Below are positions 29,042-36,119 of a stretch of 64,000 bases of DNA, in pieces. Source of the DNA: Vulcanimicrobiota bacterium (lineage in GTDB: Bacteria; Vulcanimicrobiota; Xenobia; Xenobiales; JADMJV01). Position 1 is the first letter of the stretch, and each line of letters opens with the position of its first letter. The DNA lies in assembly GCA_050250895.1 (NCBI GenBank), contig JBFWNU010000007.1:192001-256000 (forward strand), given 5' to 3'. Below the pieces are notes generated by a model. The model searched no databases and was not told where the DNA came from. It saw only the letters and a program-made list of their open reading frames with translations. A program made the position numbers and the translations under genes.

Positions 29042-30463
29042 ATGACCAACGCACAACCGACTGAGACGACGTCTTCGGAAACGACGCCTACTGGCGAGAA
29101 TGCCGCCACACCCAAGGCCGAGGAGTCGATGGAGTCTTTAATGGCCAGCCACGAGGCCTATGAGGATTCGTTCAAACAACTCAAGCGGGGCGAGGTCCTC
29201 ACCGGTCGTGTCGTACAAATCAATGAAGACAGCGTGATGGTTGACGTTGGTTACAAGACGGAAGGGATCGTGCCCCTGAATCAGCTGTCTCACCAGCGTG
29301 ACGTGAATCCCCATGAGGTGGTCAGCGTAGGTGACGAGATCACCGTAGTGGTCAAGAAGATCAACGACACCGAGGGCACGGTGGTGCTCTCTAAGAAGCA
29401 GGCTGACCTCGAGTCAGCCTGGCTGCGGGTCAACGACGCTTTCGAGAACGGAGAGGTCATCACGGCGACCTGCACCGAGCAGGTCAAAGGCGGCCTGATT
29501 GTCGACCTGGGACTGCGCGGCTTCGTGCCCGCCTCGCACGTCGACACTCGCCCGGTTCACGACCTGTCTGACTATGTGGGCGAACTGCTCCACCTCAAGG
29601 TGCTCGAGATCGATCGCGGCCGGCGTAAAATCGTTCTTTCGCGCAAGAAAGCTCTGGAAGAAGAGCGTAGCAAGATGAAAGAGCAGACCATGGCCGAACT
29701 CGAAGAGGGCCAGATCGTCAGTGGGCACGTGGCTCGCTTGACCAACTTCGGTGCCTTCATCAATCTCGGCGGGGTTGACGGGCTGGTTCACATCTCCGAG
29801 TTGTCGTGGAAGCGCATCAAGCACCCCAACGAAGTGGTTCGCGTGGGCGAGGCAGTCGAAGTGCGAGTGCTCAGTGTCGACCGCAGCCGCGAACGCATCT
29901 CCTTGTCGCTCAAGCAGGCCCGCCCTGACCCCTGGATGACCATGTCCGAGTCGCTGCGGGTCGGCCAGGTTCTCGATGGCCGCGTAACCAAGCTGGCCAA
30001 GAACTATGCCTTCGTCGAGATTGCCGAGGGAGTGGAAGGGCTGGTGCCTCTCAACGAACTTTCTGACTACAAAGTGGTCAAGCCGTCCGAGGTGCTCAAG
30101 CCCGACCAGCCGGTCAAGGTCAAAGTGATCGACGTCAAGCCCGACCAGCGTCGCATTACCCTGTCGATTCGCCAGGCTAGCGGCGGCAGCGGCGGGCCGG
30201 TCCCGGCGTCGGCTTCCTCCGGCTCTGGCGGTGGGTTCACCATCGGCGACCGGCTTCCGGCCAACCTTAAAGCCATGCTCGGCGTGGAAGGTGAGGCTAA
30301 TCAACAGCCCGAGGCCAAGCCTGAGAAGGCTGAGAAGCCTGAAAAGGCTGAGAAGCCTGAAAAGGCCGCCGAGCCGGCCGAGACCCCCGAAGCCTCAGAG
30401 GCCCCAGAAGCCCCGGCCGAAGCTCCGGTCGAGGCAGAGACGAACCAGGAAGTTAGCAACTGA
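29042..30463 (+). CDS. rpsA: 30S ribosomal protein S1 (4 S1 domains, acidic/KPEKAE low-complexity tail)
   Basis: VDVGYKTEG, VKGGLIVDLGLRGFVPAS, FGAFINLGGVDGLVHISELSW and EGVEGLV. RBS AGGAG. Confidence 0.95.
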   Translation: MTNAQPTETTSSETTPTGENAATPKAEESMESLMASHEAYEDSFKQLKRGEVLTGRVVQINEDSVMVDVGYKTEGIVPLNQLSHQRDVNPHEVVSVGDEITVVVKKINDTEGTVVLSKKQADLESAWLRVNDAFENGEVITATCTEQVKGGLIVDLGLRGFVPASHVDTRPVHDLSDYVGELLHLKVLEIDRGRRKIVLSRKKALEEERSKMKEQTMAELEEGQIVSGHVARLTNFGAFINLGGVDGLVHISELSWKRIKHPNEVVRVGEAVEVRVLSVDRSRERISLSLKQARPDPWMTMSESLRVGQVLDGRVTKLAKNYAFVEIAEGVEGLVPLNELSDYKVVKPSEVLKPDQPVKVKVIDVKPDQRRITLSIRQASGGSGGPVPASASSGSGGGFTIGDRLPANLKAMLGVEGEANQQPEAKPEKAEKPEKAEKPEKAAEPAETPEASEAPEAPAEAPVEAETNQEVSN

Positions 30464-31065
30464 GTCTGGTCCTCGGGCTGACGGGCGGGATCGCGGCGGG
30501 CAAGAGCACGGTCGCGGAGATGCTCGCGGACCTCGGAGCCACCGTCATTGATGCCGATCAGGTGAGCCGCAGGCTGATGCAGCCGGGTTCGCCTGTTTTG
30601 CTTTCCCTGGCCGACGCCTTCGGCCCCGAGACCCTCGATGCGCAAGGCGAACTCAACCGCGCCTGGCTGGGCGAGCGAGTGTTTGGCGACGAAGTTGCCC
30701 TGGCGCGCCTGAACGCCCTGACGCACCCGCCGATCTGGCGGGCCATTAGTGAAGACATCGAGGCTCTGCGCGGGCGTGTGCCGGTCATCGTGTTGATGGC
30801 TCCACTGCTCTACGAGCATCAAGCCGAAGACCGCGTGGACGAGGTCTGGGTGATCGACCTCTCGGCCGAGTCCCAGCTTCAGCGCCTTCAACAACGGAAC
30901 GGCCTCAGTCTCGAGGCCGCTCGCGCCCGGGTGGCCGCCCAGATGCCCATCGCAGAGAAGGCTCGCCGGGCCGATGTGGTCATCGACAATTCCCGCTCAC
31001 TGGAGGCAACCCGCCAACAGGTCGAGAACTGTTGGAATAGCCGGATTCTACCCCGCCTTTCCTGA
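30460..31065 (+). CDS. coaE: Dephospho-CoA kinase (probable CTG start overlapping the rpsA stop)
   Basis: The P-loop GLTGGIAAGKSTV lies upstream of the first ATG (30520). IDAD, LNALTHP and ADVVIDNS are present. Confidence 0.92.
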   Translation: MSLVLGLTGGIAAGKSTVAEMLADLGATVIDADQVSRRLMQPGSPVLLSLADAFGPETLDAQGELNRAWLGERVFGDEVALARLNALTHPPIWRAISEDIEALRGRVPVIVLMAPLLYEHQAEDRVDEVWVIDLSAESQLQRLQQRNGLSLEAARARVAAQMPIAEKARRADVVIDNSRSLEATRQQVENCWNSRILPRLS

Positions 31066-31689
31066 ATGACCATTCGACCGCTCGCAGAAGAAACTCGCCC
31101 CCGTCGCCGACCCTGGCTTACTCCTCGAAGCTCTCCCAACCGTCGGCCACGGCCGACGGTGTCTCGGCGTCGCCTGGTGTGGCTAGCTCTGGGCTTGTTC
31201 GGTTGTCTGATGCTGGTGGGACGCTGGCTGGTCCCGCTAGGTTACCCCACAGCCATTCGGCAGGCCTCGCTCGAGGCCGGTCTCGACCCTTACCTGGTGG
31301 CTTCGGTAGTGTTTCAAGAGAGTCGCGGTCGGGCCCAGGCCCGCTCCCATGTGGGCGCGGTGGGACTGATGCAGCTGATGCCTGAAACGGCCGCCTGGAT
31401 CGGCCATCGCCACGATGTCTCGTGGCAGGCAGAGGAGCTGGCCGACCCCGAGCTGAATCTCCGTCTCGGGACGCTCTATCTACGCTATTTGATGCGTGAG
31501 TTTGCCAATAACGAGACTTCTGCCCTGGCCGCCTATAATGCGGGTCCAGGTGTGGTCTCTGGTTGGCAGGGCGAGGGGTCTCTCGAGCCCGACGAGATCC
31601 GCTATCCCGAGACCAGACACTATGTGCGCCGGATCCAGGCCGTGCGGCGGGTGCTACCGCTGCTGTATCCCGAACTGGCCCTGCGCTAA
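31066..31689 (+). CDS. Lytic transglycosylase (SLT domain) with N-terminal TM anchor
   Basis: QES, GAVGLMQLMP.TA, ALAAYNAGPG and YPETRHYV. Confidence 0.92.
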   Translation: MTIRPLAEETRPRRRPWLTPRSSPNRRPRPTVSRRRLVWLALGLFGCLMLVGRWLVPLGYPTAIRQASLEAGLDPYLVASVVFQESRGRAQARSHVGAVGLMQLMPETAAWIGHRHDVSWQAEELADPELNLRLGTLYLRYLMREFANNETSALAAYNAGPGVVSGWQGEGSLEPDEIRYPETRHYVRRIQAVRRVLPLLYPELALR

Positions 31690-31705
31690 CGCAAGAGGAG
31701 CCAAG

Positions 31706-32041
31706 ATGATGATGACCGACTCTAAAGAGAAGTCCAGCAAACCTATTACGAGTTTCTCGAGCTGCGTCGACGAGGACGTGGTGATTTATGTGGCCGAGGC
31801 CGAGCAGCTGAGTCCGCTGGACCTGCCTATCGACAAGGGGTGTTTGGAGGCCCGCCTGGTGGGGGTTGACCGCAAGGGTATTTGGATTGAGCCCGCCGCC
31901 TGGTTGTCTCGAGGCCTTGATTCTGGCGACCAGATTGGCCATGTCTTCCTGAAGTGGGATAACGTGCTGTCGGTCGTTCGCAAAATCGAAAGCGATCTGT
32001 TTGCAGAGCGAAAGGAGTATCGGGGTCTCCGCCCTCGCTAG
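31706..32041 (+). CDS. Small hypothetical protein, possible Sm/Hfq-like beta fold
   Basis: RBS GAGGAG before ATG. Pattern ARLVGVDRKGIWIE...VFLKWDNVLSV. Confidence 0.7.
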   Translation: MMMTDSKEKSSKPITSFSSCVDEDVVIYVAEAEQLSPLDLPIDKGCLEARLVGVDRKGIWIEPAAWLSRGLDSGDQIGHVFLKWDNVLSVVRKIESDLFAERKEYRGLRPR

Positions 32042-32047
32042 CAGGCC

Positions 32048-32476
32048 GTGACCGACCCGCTGCTGTATTTTCTCAAATTTGGGCTGCTGGGCGGTCTGTA
32101 CTTCTTTCTGTTCTGGTTGCTGCGCTTTCTGGTGCGCGATCTGGGGGGACGCTCGGTACCCTCCGGTCCTTCCAGTCAACTCTGGCTGGAGGTGGTCGAC
32201 GGGCACGCCAGCGTCGAAAACCCCGCCCCGGTCGCCTTGAGCGACACCGTCACCATCGGGCGGGCGCCGGGCTGCCAGGTGCAGGTGCACGACCCTTTCT
32301 GTTCGGCTCGTCACGCCCGCCTGGTGCCTCGCGATGGCGGCGTGGTGCTGGAGGACCTCGATAGCACCAATGGGGTTACCATCGACGGCCAAACGGTCGA
32401 GAGTGGCTCACGCCTCAAGGTCGGTCAGCGATTTAGCATAGGAGAGGTCACCTTCGAGATAAAAAAAAAGCCCTGA
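32048..32476 (+). CDS. Membrane-anchored FHA domain protein (FhaB/FipA-like)
   Basis: N-terminal TM, then TIGR, SARHA and DLDSTNG FHA signature. Confidence 0.92.
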   Translation: MTDPLLYFLKFGLLGGLYFFLFWLLRFLVRDLGGRSVPSGPSSQLWLEVVDGHASVENPAPVALSDTVTIGRAPGCQVQVHDPFCSARHARLVPRDGGVVLEDLDSTNGVTIDGQTVESGSRLKVGQRFSIGEVTFEIKKKP

Positions 32477-33702
32477 GGCCAGCACGCGAGGCTGTCGGCC
32501 TGCTGCTGGCCCAGGCGCTGACGGCCGGCGGCTTGCTGTTGGCCGAATTGGCCCAACCCGACAACGGGTCTGACCCGTGGGCTGCCTTTGGCGGGTTGAC
32601 CGTGCTCTGGTGGTGCGTGTGGGCCATCCGCCGGCGTCTGGCCCGCCGCTCGGACCCGACCTTGCTTCCTCTTTGCTGCGCGCTCTCGGGTCTTGGTTGG
32701 GTAGAGGTCTATCGCCTGGACCCCGATCTTGGCCTACGACAGGCAATGTGGTTGGCGCTGGGTCTGTTGGTGTTCGTGCTGACTCTCTGGTTGGTCCGGG
32801 ATTTTCGGCGACTGGAAGACTTTCGCTACCTCTACTTCTTCGCCGGCATCGGGCTGCAACTGGCCGTGATGATTTTCGGGGTCGAGATCAATGGCGCTCG
32901 ACTCTGGTTTCGCTTCGGCAGCCTGCAGTTTCAACCGGTCGAGGTGGTCAAGATCTTCATGATTTTGTTCTTGGCCGCCTATTTCCGCCGCTTTCGGCAG
33001 TGGATGCACTCAGACCGCCAAGGACGCCTGCCGCGCCGCGCTCTGCTGATGTTGGCCCTGGGTTGGATGGCCGCCCTGGGCGTGCTGGTTTTGCAGAAAG
33101 ACCTGGGAATGGCGCTGCTGTTTATGGGGGTCTTTCTGGCCATGTTCTACGTGGCTACCGGACGAGCCGAACTCGTCGGCGCAGCCGGGGCTCTTTTCGT
33201 GGTCGGGGCCGCAGTTGGCTATCGATTGTTCGGCCACGTGCGAGTGCGCGTTCAGGCCTGGCTCGACCCGTTCGCCCACGCCGAGACCGGAGGATACCAG
33301 ATGTGTCAGGCCCTCTTCAGTTTGAGTTGGGGTGGCCTTTTCGGGACCGGTCTGGGAATGGGCAAGCCGCAAATCGTTCCGGAAGCGGCCACCGACTTCA
33401 TTTTCGTGGCCCTGGCCGAGGAGTTGGGTCTGCTCGGGGCTGTGGCTATCCTGCTGTTTGTGCTGTTGTTGGTGCAGCGAGCCTGCCGCATCGCCATGGC
33501 GTGCCGCGATGAATTCAGCGCCCTGGTCGGCATCGGTCTGGCCACGCTGCTCGCCCTTCAAAGCCTGATTATCGTGGGTGGAACTCTCAAGGTCATTCCC
33601 ATGACCGGCATCACCTTGCCCTTCGTCTCTTACGGAGGCAGTTCGATGCTAGCCAATTTCTTGATCCTGGCCTTATTCGAAAGGCTGGCCGATGGAGATT
33701 AG
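32473..33702 (+). CDS. rodA: SEDS-family glycosyltransferase RodA/FtsW (start ambiguous: CTG 32473, TTG 32533, or frameshift fusion to FHA)
   Basis: NGARLW, FQP.E..K, QKDLG, AWLDPF, TDFIF...EELG and PMTGITLPFVSYGGSS. Confidence 0.9.
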   Translation: MRPAREAVGLLLAQALTAGGLLLAELAQPDNGSDPWAAFGGLTVLWWCVWAIRRRLARRSDPTLLPLCCALSGLGWVEVYRLDPDLGLRQAMWLALGLLVFVLTLWLVRDFRRLEDFRYLYFFAGIGLQLAVMIFGVEINGARLWFRFGSLQFQPVEVVKIFMILFLAAYFRRFRQWMHSDRQGRLPRRALLMLALGWMAALGVLVLQKDLGMALLFMGVFLAMFYVATGRAELVGAAGALFVVGAAVGYRLFGHVRVRVQAWLDPFAHAETGGYQMCQALFSLSWGGLFGTGLGMGKPQIVPEAATDFIFVALAEELGLLGAVAILLFVLLLVQRACRIAMACRDEFSALVGIGLATLLALQSLIIVGGTLKVIPMTGITLPFVSYGGSSMLANFLILALFERLADGD

Positions 33703-35023
33703 GGGCCGCATACGACATTTGTCCCTGGTGATGTTGGCCGCCTTTCTGGTCCCCATCTTCCAGCTCTGGAATTATCAGGTCTATCAAAAGGACTTGTTGG
33801 AGCGACATCCGGCCAACCCCCGACGTTCCGAAGACCTTTCCCTGAGGGGACGCATCCTCGACCGCAACGACCAGGTGTTGGCCGAGACCCGGGGCGACCG
33901 GCGCCACTATCCGCTGGGCCCGGCGGCGGCCGGGTTGGTGGGCTATTATCAGCGCCATCTCGGGAGGGCCGGCCTGGAGTTGGCCCTGGACTCCCAGTTG
34001 CAGGGCCGCTCGCGACCGCGCTCGCTGGCCGAAGCCTTGGAGCTGGCCAGGCGCAAGAGCCGTCATGGTGACGACCTGCGCATCACCCTTGACGCCAGGC
34101 TGCAGCGTCATCTCTATGAGGCGATGGCGGGTCGTCGGGGAGCGGTGGTGGTCCTCGACGTGACCAGTGGCGAGGTGCTGGCGGCCACGACTTTTCCCAG
34201 CTTCGAGCCCGAGGATCTGGCCGAAGATTGGAAGGCGCTCAACCAGGACAAGGATGCTCCGCTCATCGAGCGCGCCTCCCAGGGCCTCTACCCGCCTGGT
34301 TCGACGTTCAAAGTGATGATGGCGGCCGGCTTGCTGGACCGAGAGGGATTTTCTCCCCAGGCGACCTTCGATTGCCGAGGGGCCCTGGTGGTAGACGGCT
34401 TCGAGATTACCGACCATGGCCACGGCCGCGTGGATCTCTCGGAGGCGCTGGTCGAATCGTGCAACCTGTATTTCGCGGAATGGGGGCGAAAGATCGGGTT
34501 GGATGGCATCGCCGGGCTAATGATGCGTTTCCAACTGCTCGACGCCCCCGAGGGCGTGCCCGGTAGCAGCCAGGGCCATCTGCCGCGAGCCAAGCCTGGG
34601 CACGAGCAAGTGGCCGCCGCTCAAGCCGCCATCGGTCAGGCCGACATGCTGGTCACACCCCTGGCGATGGCCCGACTGGTCGCCATGATCGCGCGGGGCG
34701 GCGTCGACATCGAGCCCCACCTCATGGCCGCCGAGACCCGCCCCGAACGTTTGCTTTCAGAGCCGGATGCCGCTCTGATCGCGGGCGCCCTCGAGCAAGT
34801 CGTCTCCCGAGGAACTGCCCGATCCGTGGCGGGGAGTGGTTTGGCCGGCAAGACGGGTACGGCCGAGAACCCTCAGGGAGAACCGCACGCCTGGTTTGTC
34901 GGCTATGCACCGGTCAAAGAGCCCCGGGTGGCCGTGGCCGTCATCCTCGAAAACGGCGGCTACGGAGGCACTGCGGCCGCTCCTCTGGCCGCCGAAGCGG
35001 TACGCTTTGCTCTCGAAAAGTGA
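33692..35023 (+). CDS. Class B penicillin-binding protein (PbpA-like)
   Basis: RGRILDRN, YPPGSTFK (SxxK), SCN (SxN), KTGTAE and HAWF. Confidence 0.92.
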   Translation: MEIRGRIRHLSLVMLAAFLVPIFQLWNYQVYQKDLLERHPANPRRSEDLSLRGRILDRNDQVLAETRGDRRHYPLGPAAAGLVGYYQRHLGRAGLELALDSQLQGRSRPRSLAEALELARRKSRHGDDLRITLDARLQRHLYEAMAGRRGAVVVLDVTSGEVLAATTFPSFEPEDLAEDWKALNQDKDAPLIERASQGLYPPGSTFKVMMAAGLLDREGFSPQATFDCRGALVVDGFEITDHGHGRVDLSEALVESCNLYFAEWGRKIGLDGIAGLMMRFQLLDAPEGVPGSSQGHLPRAKPGHEQVAAAQAAIGQADMLVTPLAMARLVAMIARGGVDIEPHLMAAETRPERLLSEPDAALIAGALEQVVSRGTARSVAGSGLAGKTGTAENPQGEPHAWFVGYAPVKEPRVAVAVILENGGYGGTAAAPLAAEAVRFALEK

Positions 35024-35027
35024 GCGA

Positions 35028-36119
35028 CTAGGGGTGGAAGAAGAAGATCAGGGCGAAGAAGCAGTAGACGGCCAGGAACATGGCGCCTTCGAGCCAGTTT
35101 GACTCACCGTCGATCAGGGCGAAGCCCGCGATCGCCACGCCGGCCCCCAGGAATAGCAGTTCGAAGACGTTGAAGGTCAGCGTCATCGGATTGCCCATGA
35201 TGAACGAGGCGATGACCAGGACGGGGGCGACCATCAGCGCCACTTGCAGGCACGATCCCATGGCGATCTGGAAAGACAGGTCCATCTTGTTTTCTCGGGC
35301 TACCCAGATGGCCACCGAACCTTCGGCCGCATTGCCGACCACCGCCACCACCACCACGCCCACGAACAGCTTGCTGATATGCACGTGGACCAGCAGGGCT
35401 TCGATAGCCTCTACGAAGACGTCGCTGAGGTAGGCCACTGCCACGGTGGCAATCAGCAGAGTCACGATCGCCTGAGCTTTGCTCCACTCGGCCGTCTCGT
35501 GGTGGTTGTCATCAGGCATCAGCAAGAAGCGATGGGTTCGCAGGCTAAAAAGCAGGCTCAGCAGATAGATGAAGAGCAGTGTAATCGCGGCCGCCAGCGA
35601 GGCGTGCTCGGTCAGAGTCACGGCAGCCTCGGGAGTGAGTTCTTTGTCGACCCCGGTCGCGAAGGGAATGAAGCTGGGAACCACCAGGGTGATCAAGGTC
35701 AAGACCAGCATTCCGATGTTGACGCTGGCGCCGGTTTGCGAGAACTTCTGGGTAGAGTGCTTGAGTCCGCCGTAGAGCATCGAGGCTCCGAGCACCAGCA
35801 GCAAGTTGCCCAGAATCGAGCCGGTGATCGACGAGCGGACGATCTCATGCAGCCCTGCCCGCAGGGCAAAAAAGGCGATGATCAATTCGGTCACGTTGCC
35901 AAAGGTGGCGTTCATCAAGCCGCCCCAGACCGGACCCGCATAGATAGCGTATTCTTCGGTCGACTTGCCGATCAGGGTCACCGTGCCCAGAATGGTCGCA
36001 CAGCAACCGATAAAGAGTCCCCAATGACCACCCCATCCGGTAAGGTGCATTACGATGACCAGAGGCAGGCCCAGGCAAAGGGCCGAGGCTTTGGGGAGCG
36101 AGGACAAGAACTTCTTCAT
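35028..36119 (-). CDS. cax: Ca2+/H+ antiporter (CaCA/Cax family)
   Basis: NATFGNVTELI, GSILGNLLLVLG, GNAAE, GS.LQVAL and DGESNWLEG. Confidence 0.92.
   Translation of the reverse strand: MKKFLSSLPKASALCLGLPLVIVMHLTGWGGHWGLFIGCCATILGTVTLIGKSTEEYAIYAGPVWGGLMNATFGNVTELIIAFFALRAGLHEIVRSSITGSILGNLLLVLGASMLYGGLKHSTQKFSQTGASVNIGMLVLTLITLVVPSFIPFATGVDKELTPEAAVTLTEHASLAAAITLLFIYLLSLLFSLRTHRFLLMPDDNHHETAEWSKAQAIVTLLIATVAVAYLSDVFVEAIEALLVHVHISKLFVGVVVVAVVGNAAEGSVAIWVARENKMDLSFQIAMGSCLQVALMVAPVLVIASFIMGNPMTLTFNVFELLFLGAGVAIAGFALIDGESNWLEGAMFLAVYCFFALIFFFHP

Follow-up and report, generated by a model that had tools for sequence, protein, structure and literature searches.

A nine-adenine run between an FHA-domain gene and rodA as a candidate slippage site in a Vulcanimicrobiota genome

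How is RodA, the SEDS-family cell-wall glycosyltransferase, made when its gene has no ordinary start codon and lies in the -1 frame of the gene before it? The question is raised by a 64,000-nucleotide stretch of DNA from a Vulcanimicrobiota bacterium (positions 192,001 to 256,000 of contig JBFWNU010000007.1, assembly GCA_050250895.1; hereafter the window), in which a small gene for a transmembrane FHA protein (TM-FHA) runs through nine adenines just before its stop codon and straight into rodA. The window lies on contig C7 of the host genome (G000), which comprises 9.5 Mb in 17 contigs at 63% GC and whose nearest RodA relatives come, by source, from Candidatus Eremiobacterota, Vulcanimicrobiota or Candidatus Xenobia. 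Our reading, drawn from comparative sequence analysis and held at a probability of about 0.5, is that slippage or frameshifting on the A9 run would give rise to a TM-FHA-RodA fusion protein.

Inspecting the junction confirmed the layout described in an earlier note on this DNA. The FHA gene (32048-32476, plus strand) encodes a 142-residue protein with an N-terminal hydrophobic segment at residues 11-29 followed by a cytoplasmic FHA domain (PF00498, E = 4.2e-17, residues 68-132), and homologues align to it over their whole length. Its C-terminus, ...EIKKKP, is encoded by GAG ATA AAA AAA AAG CCC TGA; the A9 run occupies 32461-32469 on the plus strand and contains, in the FHA frame, the slippery heptamer A_AAA_AAG (32464-32470). 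The -1 frame is open from 32437, just past a TAG at 32434-32436, through to the rodA stop TAG at 33700-33702, so the two genes are joined in this register with no intervening stop, as the note had claimed. The rodA reading (32470-33702, plus strand; PF01098, FtsW/RodA/SpoVE family, E = 4.7e-75) would be entered at GCC 32470 after a shift, or at CTG 32473 if translation were reinitiated. It has no ATG or GTG start, again as claimed, and its first ATG, GTG or TTG codon is a TTG at 32533. The earlier account of the junction left unmentioned that the CTG in the rodA frame overlaps the FHA stop to form a CTGA (32473-32476, plus strand), which is also present in the sister genome described below and stands where relatives have ATGA or GTGA.

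The -1 frame carries more than the SEDS core. Thermus thermophilus RodA (6BAR) matches it over query residues 76-413 (E = 8e-38), with 6BAR residue 15 aligned to residue 76, such that about 75 residues precede the core. This N-terminal extension, shared by relatives, includes a hydrophobic helix at residues 20-38, and the first canonical start codons (TTG 32533, 32539 and 32548; together 32533-32550, plus strand) fall inside or at the end of it. The helix cut by a TTG start is thus the extra first helix and not the canonical first SEDS transmembrane segment. For annotation, the consequence would be that gene callers yield an N-terminally cut RodA both here (P0002, starting at 32539, 387 residues) and in the sister genome (P0006, 316 residues). 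Three further RodA proteins of the same clade (P0003, P0007 and P0004) are likewise annotated as beginning within or at the first N-terminal helix and may conceal a similar junction.

The genus includes only one other genome, G001, a separate assembly of 640 contigs whose junction reads TCG CTA AAA AAA AAG TCT CCA GGC TGA. The run is thus preceded by a rare xTA codon here too (CTA), and the heptamer to which the earlier note had drawn attention recurs letter for letter and in the same frame. Between the two genomes the FHA proteins are 50% and the RodA proteins 73% identical. When the junctions are aligned as nucleotides, the longest identical block is the 11-nt T-A9-G, the next being 6 nt. 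Downstream, the first ATG, GTG or TTG in the rodA frame of G001 is a TTG that lies 87 nt beyond the first base of the run. Further FHA homologues end in KKKP followed by a stop, namely P0281/P0270 (81% identical) and P0272 (47% identical), the last of which might be the partner of P0003, P0007 or P0004. FHA proteins of the related genus g4 end in VKRA or VRRT.

Runs of this kind are rare in the host genome. Its 9.5 Mb hold 24 A or T runs of at least nine (13 A, 11 T), compared with about 30 in G001 (34 pattern matches, some overlapping), and the A9 studied here is the sole one of the 24 that joins two frames of high GC content at third codon positions (GC3) in different registers: a frame of 139 codons (GC3 0.77) ending one codon after the run, and a continuing frame of 410 codons (GC3 0.75). 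Over 4364 long high-GC3 open reading frames (ORFs) of G000, AAA makes up 32% of Lys, ATA 2.1% of Ile and CTA 3.4% of Leu codons. Of 161 KKK tripeptides, one is written AAAAAAAAG and none AAAAAAAAA, where codon frequencies alone would predict about 7%. According to the part of PMC1088944 drawn on here, selection against homopolymer runs appears at length nine in many genomes. That a tract both hypermutable and disfavoured has stayed unchanged at every base over such divergence argues for selection acting on the nucleotides of the run.

We compared the junction with those of relatives. A search with the RodA frame across 41 genomes of the order and class returned a match in all 41; of 30 loci fetched, 23 had an FHA match upstream and seven did not (L018, L023, L025, L027, L028, L030, and L011, where a contig end cuts the locus). 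With L026 set aside for having only a distant, weak FHA match, 22 junctions were inspected. Ordinary starts predominate: a GTGA overlap in five (L003-L007), an ATGA overlap in three (L008-L010), a TGATG in one (L012) and a separate start in ten, placed between a few and about 20 nt downstream (L014-L017, L019-L022, L024 and L029), with one junction unclear (L013). The combination of A9 and CTGA was seen in 2/22, the window and G001 (genus g1). Because ordinary starts are the rule in the other relatives, the A9-CTGA state is judged to be derived.

The earlier note had proposed looking for FHA-RodA fusions encoded in a single frame, and such proteins exist. Searching 5.8 billion proteins with the RodA frame retrieved P0009 (JGI) and P0011 (Logan; NCBI/ENA member P0277), each of 569 residues with FHA and RodA Pfam domains in one chain and a RodA part 61% identical. 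Their N-terminal parts share 45% identity with TM-FHA over its full length, membrane helix included. The joints read ...GDTVLRVKKKPEHRARLTFEATLLLGAQ... in P0009 and ...RVKKNLDRRPRLTYEATLLL... in P0011 (protein sequence), with KKK at the former (VKKKPEHRARL) and KKN at the latter (VKKNLDRRPRL); the KKKP of P0009 aligns on the terminal KKKP of the protein in the window. A further search, with HMMER against 1.84 billion representatives, brought in P0129 (564 residues, FHA and RodA) and P0193 (1058 residues, FHA, RodA and penicillin-binding protein (PBP) domains; an Armatimonadota metagenome-assembled genome (MAG) by source name), so that the TM-FHA-RodA architecture which the note had envisaged is real in nature, up to a triple fusion. 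In domain order and linker length these natural fusions equal the predicted shifted product. Unlike the junction in the window, they need no shift; they are known here as protein sequences.

Maximum-likelihood analysis of 19 RodA rows placed the A9 pair of G000 and G001 in one clade with P0009/P0011, P0003/P0007 and P0004 (ultrafast bootstrap/SH-aLRT support 86/90, internal order unresolved), to which the GTGA-overlap genus g4 was sister. P0129 sat on a very long branch and its placement is unsure. It is tentatively conceivable, at somewhat short of even odds, that a single clade holds three states of joining: genes coupled by ATGA or GTGA, genes recoded at A9 with the RodA start lost, and single-gene fusions.

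Several other searches returned no further case. A metagenome scan with the RodA protein gave two loci at only 34% identity, and a scan of genome contigs with P0277 gave no locus above 62% identity. Apparent full-length matches of P0277 in Firmicutes and Actinomycetes were rejected as fusions, as they proved to be separate FHA and rodA genes. Fused P0009 found no uninterrupted FHA-RodA frame among 44 genomes of the class or in a phylum sample of 401 genomes; in G021, G028, G048 and G072, the same search showed the two genes sharing a frame but separated by a stop codon. A search for longer proteins containing FHA yielded FHA-ABC-transporter proteins only and did not recover P0009. The representatives also contained other RodA fusions, including one with a PP2C phosphatase (P0133) and many RodA-PBP proteins, with RodA and transpeptidase domains in 870-960 residues, one of which (P0126) was confirmed. 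In family f4, RodA frames open over 915-987 codons (G040:C879, G042:C534 and G043:C298) suggest RodA-PBP fusions as well.

We propose that the A9 run would act as a programmed shift site at the end of the TM-FHA gene. Most expression would remain unshifted, ending at TGA 32474 to give the 142-residue TM-FHA protein. By the preferred route, RNA polymerase would add one A on the A9/T9 tract and thereby place the message in the -1 frame; alternatively, the ribosome would slip by -1 on A_AAA_AAG, aided in this genome by a stem-loop. Both routes would lead to an identical 551-residue protein of 141 TM-FHA residues and 410 rodA-frame residues, in which a membrane helix and a cytoplasmic FHA domain are connected by a short basic linker (KKK-A-L-R-P-A-R) to two extra N-terminal helices, followed by the RodA core. 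We infer the occurrence of slippage, its rate and the slipping machine, and likewise that the fusion would bring a phosphothreonine-binding module onto the synthase formed by the SEDS protein and its class B PBP.

Several observations weigh against a shift at this site or against its ribosomal route; those that belong to a competing explanation are given with it further below. The earlier note had seen a three-part dnaX-type cassette, which is not conserved as a unit. Its Shine-Dalgarno (SD)-like element, AGGAGAGGT, is indeed present (32440-32448, plus strand), but in both genomes 16 nt separate the end of its GAGG core from the heptamer, and not the 12-15 nt first given; from the A run the distance in the window is 12 nt. 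The 16S 3' end of G000 is canonical (CCTCC). The motif is explained by coding: it spells the conserved I-G-E-V residues of the FHA domain, whose codons read GGCGAGGTC in G001 and GGAGACGTG in genus g4. The hairpin, too, is present and strong in this genome: the stem-loop at 32472-32515 (plus strand) has an inner stem of GGCCAGCA (32477-84) and TGCTGGCC (32504-11) that begins 6 nt past the heptamer and, when 46 nt are folded alone, it reaches -32.4 kcal/mol (z -4.22, 0/200 shuffles as good), a significance that depends on the folded window, with z falling to -1.73 in 96 nt. Its counterpart in G001 abuts the run and has -17 kcal/mol (z -1.04, 26/200 shuffles as good), that is, no significant conservation. 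ARAGORN further identified one tRNA-Lys(CUU) and two tRNA-Lys(UUU) in G000, and the presence of the former should lower ribosomal slippage on AAG. The dnaX gene of G000 has no A run of five or more and thus gives no independent hint that slippage is used in this organism, and the letters of the junction are readable in two genomes only, G000 and G001. Since the SD-like motif is coding, the hairpin is weak in G001 and tRNA-Lys(CUU) is present, we prefer transcriptional slippage over ribosomal frameshifting, with a ribosomal share possible in this genome.

Comparison with known systems points the same way. Like the cassette of Escherichia coli dnaX and the IS3 family, the junction has the zero-frame heptamer and, in G000, a stable stem-loop with its inner stem 6 nt downstream; unlike it, the SD-like motif is 16 nt off, the stem-loop lacks significance in G001, and a tRNA-Lys(CUU) exists. 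In the portion of PMC5009743 considered here, the shiftiness of A_AAA_AAG in E. coli is tied to its sole lysine tRNA, and T. thermophilus dnaX, in a species with two lysine tRNAs, is described as relying on RNA-polymerase slippage on A9 instead of frameshifting; PMC1088944, in the part used, puts slippage on that A9 at about 50%. As far as these excerpts describe it, the Thermus gene resembles our locus in that a templated sense-strand A9 lies in a cellular gene, AAG is read by a cognate tRNA among two lysine tRNAs, and one gene gives products in several frames. It differs in that its shifted products are shorter (gamma), whereas here the shifted product is predicted to be longer and to join two proteins. 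For a longer product the nearest example is Shigella flexneri mxiE, whose longer, functional form requires slippage to align two ORFs (PMC1088944, PMC5009743, both in part). What is split there, in that description, is one transcription activator, while here the two partners are standalone proteins in relatives and the unshifted product, TM-FHA, is complete. The site is therefore best called a candidate programmed slippage or frameshift site yielding a fusion, closest in its proposed working to T. thermophilus dnaX and to mxiE, and less close to the complete E. coli dnaX cassette.

In gene content, the nearest parallel is actinobacterial. The operon order there is fhaA-fhaB-pstP-rodA-pbpA-pknA-pknB, and the FhaB/FipA cluster, like the window, has a small membrane-anchored FHA protein encoded directly upstream of rodA and pbpA, with a RodA N-terminal extension before the SEDS core. 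Unlike that cluster, the window has no pstP or kinase gene between or beside these genes, and a slippery run replaces the separate starts. Roles of FipA and FhaB in phosphorylation and protein interaction are treated in PMC3989709 (portion consulted). A literature search returned no paper that describes recoding at an FHA-rodA junction. In the GeneTack survey, FtsW, RodA and FHA are absent from the main text, a statement that does not extend to its supplements, a possible place for such a cluster.

The genes around the junction form a compact plus-strand row of an SLT-domain protein, an ORF without a family, TM-FHA, rodA and a class B PBP gene. The PBP gene (PbpA-like; 33692-35023, plus strand; PF00905, E = 4.9e-50, and PF21922) begins with an ATG at 33692 that overlaps the end of rodA by 11 nt. 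Upstream, the ORF at 31496-32041, for which Pfam returned no family, ends 7 nt before the GTG start of the FHA gene, which has no evident SD sequence. Beyond the row, a convergent gene for a Na/Ca exchanger (PF01699; 35028-36119, minus strand), absent at the same place in G001, has its stop 4 nt from the pbp stop at 35023, a distance that leaves no room for terminators between the two. Rfam returned no relevant match over window positions 31000-34000.

The explanation that competes best with slippage, and which we regard as doubtful, is that RodA is translated on its own from CTG 32473, through termination-reinitiation at CTGA in a degenerate form of ATGA/GTGA coupling; the A run would then be kept for some other reason, as an A-rich unstructured leader close ahead of the start or as an antisense terminator. 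Both genomes of the genus have CTGA where 8/22 relatives have ATGA or GTGA, and even weak reinitiation at the CTG could provide RodA without a shift. Moreover, the peptide after the CTG (R-P-A-R-E..., or K-P-S-A-L... in G001) aligns with the N-termini M-R-A-R-E-L and M-K-R-R-E-L of genus g4, the genes of the operon are densely packed and overlap elsewhere, as at the 11 nt shared by pbp and rodA, and at least one T9 elsewhere in the genome (C1:3138987) abuts an ATG. However, CTG is a very poor initiator in the bacteria studied. In this GC3-rich genome, chance alone would put a C before TGA in about 4/10 cases, which makes the CTGA weak evidence, and the spacing from A run to CTG varies (3 nt versus 9 nt) while the FHA frame of the run is identical. 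Reinitiation also leaves the conserved A9 unexplained, together with the decay of the start in the very lineage that gained the run and the in-frame fusions of the same clade. It may coexist with slippage.

A second alternative reads the conserved element on the opposite strand, as an intrinsic terminator composed of a GC-rich hairpin and U9 that would stop read-through from convergent genes downstream of pbp, with the frames incidental; we consider this improbable. The earlier note described the hairpin and overlooked this aspect of it. On the minus strand the hairpin reaches -33.7 kcal/mol and ends 0-3 nt before the T9, depending on the folded window, and 17/24 T runs of at least nine in the genome have a terminator-type hairpin, compared with 772/3000 (26%) random 50-mers, so that conservation of the A run could stem from a terminator role. 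A simple scan found no minus-strand terminator between the exchanger gene (35028-36119) and the junction; it did not flag the junction either. The hairpin abuts the run in G001 as well. There, however, it has only -9.1 kcal/mol on the minus strand versus -17 on the plus strand, which is stronger because of G-U pairs, and the exchanger is missing, the convergent gene being mutY, more than 3 kb away. In the window, too, 2.5 kb separate the site from the closest end of a convergent gene, and it lies within coding DNA, a position unique among the 24 runs. A terminator accounts neither for the absent rodA start nor for the fused relatives.

Distinctly improbable, in our view, is that RodA starts at an internal TTG (32533, 32539 or 32548) and lacks the first extra helix, the stretch from A run to TTG being decaying non-coding sequence. 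No canonical start comes earlier in the frame, the gene caller placed the start of P0002 at 32539, and TTG 32548 aligns with the TTG of G001; judged from the 6BAR alignment, a protein started there would have a workable topology, its short tail being periplasmic as in the full form. Yet no SD sequence precedes the TTGs. The rodA frame is open and in register from the A run through the hydrophobic helix in both genomes, at a net length difference of 12 nt, and the first helix is common to all homologues, fusions included.

Long-read assemblies are prone to errors in homopolymers, which are also hypermutable during replication. Both properties are also raised in the discussion of PMC1088944, as far as that text was drawn on. 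An artefact, in which a plain fused gene with a true A10 was misread during long-read assembly (there are only 17 contigs in G000), or a phase-variable tract at the DNA level, is highly improbable, and assembly error in particular is unlikely because several independent assemblies share the unfused layout: G001 has the same unfused length in its independent 640-contig assembly, FHA proteins from other assemblies end in KKKP-stop (P0281 from an NCBI MAG, P0272 from Logan), two contigs from public runs of two studies, about 88-90% identical, span the junction (31900-32669 and 32159-32667) without an indel, establishing run length only and not letters, and no variant run length was seen among the assemblies compared.

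Some further features of the genome were noted. The T9 at C1:3138987-3138995, read on the minus strand, abuts the ATG of a high-GC3 frame of more than 400 codons and may be a U-rich leader. A second SEDS homologue (G000:C2:606404-607513) contains one in-frame TGA, which may reflect pseudogenization, recoding or an error; tRNA-SeC is present in G000. A ribosomal protein S1 homologue in the window (29042-30463) has a Pro/Glu/Ala-rich C-terminal tail with PEKAEK repeats. Contig C4 begins with C13, C12 and C9 runs (G000:C4:8-61), probably an assembly-end artefact.

To our knowledge, programmed slippage has been described in few bacterial genes that are cellular and not part of mobile elements. Longer slippage products that join two otherwise independent proteins are rare, mxiE being the usual example. 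If our reading is correct, a cell-wall synthase would join the list of genes that use slippage. Recoding would appear as a step on the way from adjacent operon genes to a single fused one. If the clade does hold all three states of joining, slippage would both set the ratio of free FHA protein to FHA-tethered SEDS synthase and represent an extant intermediate on the path to fusion, and RodA activity in these bacteria would be wired directly to Ser/Thr phosphorylation. The link from FHA proteins to the RodA-PBP synthase has so far been drawn mainly from actinobacterial gene neighbourhood; a fusion made at this site would add a direct physical argument that phosphothreonine-binding modules act on that synthase.

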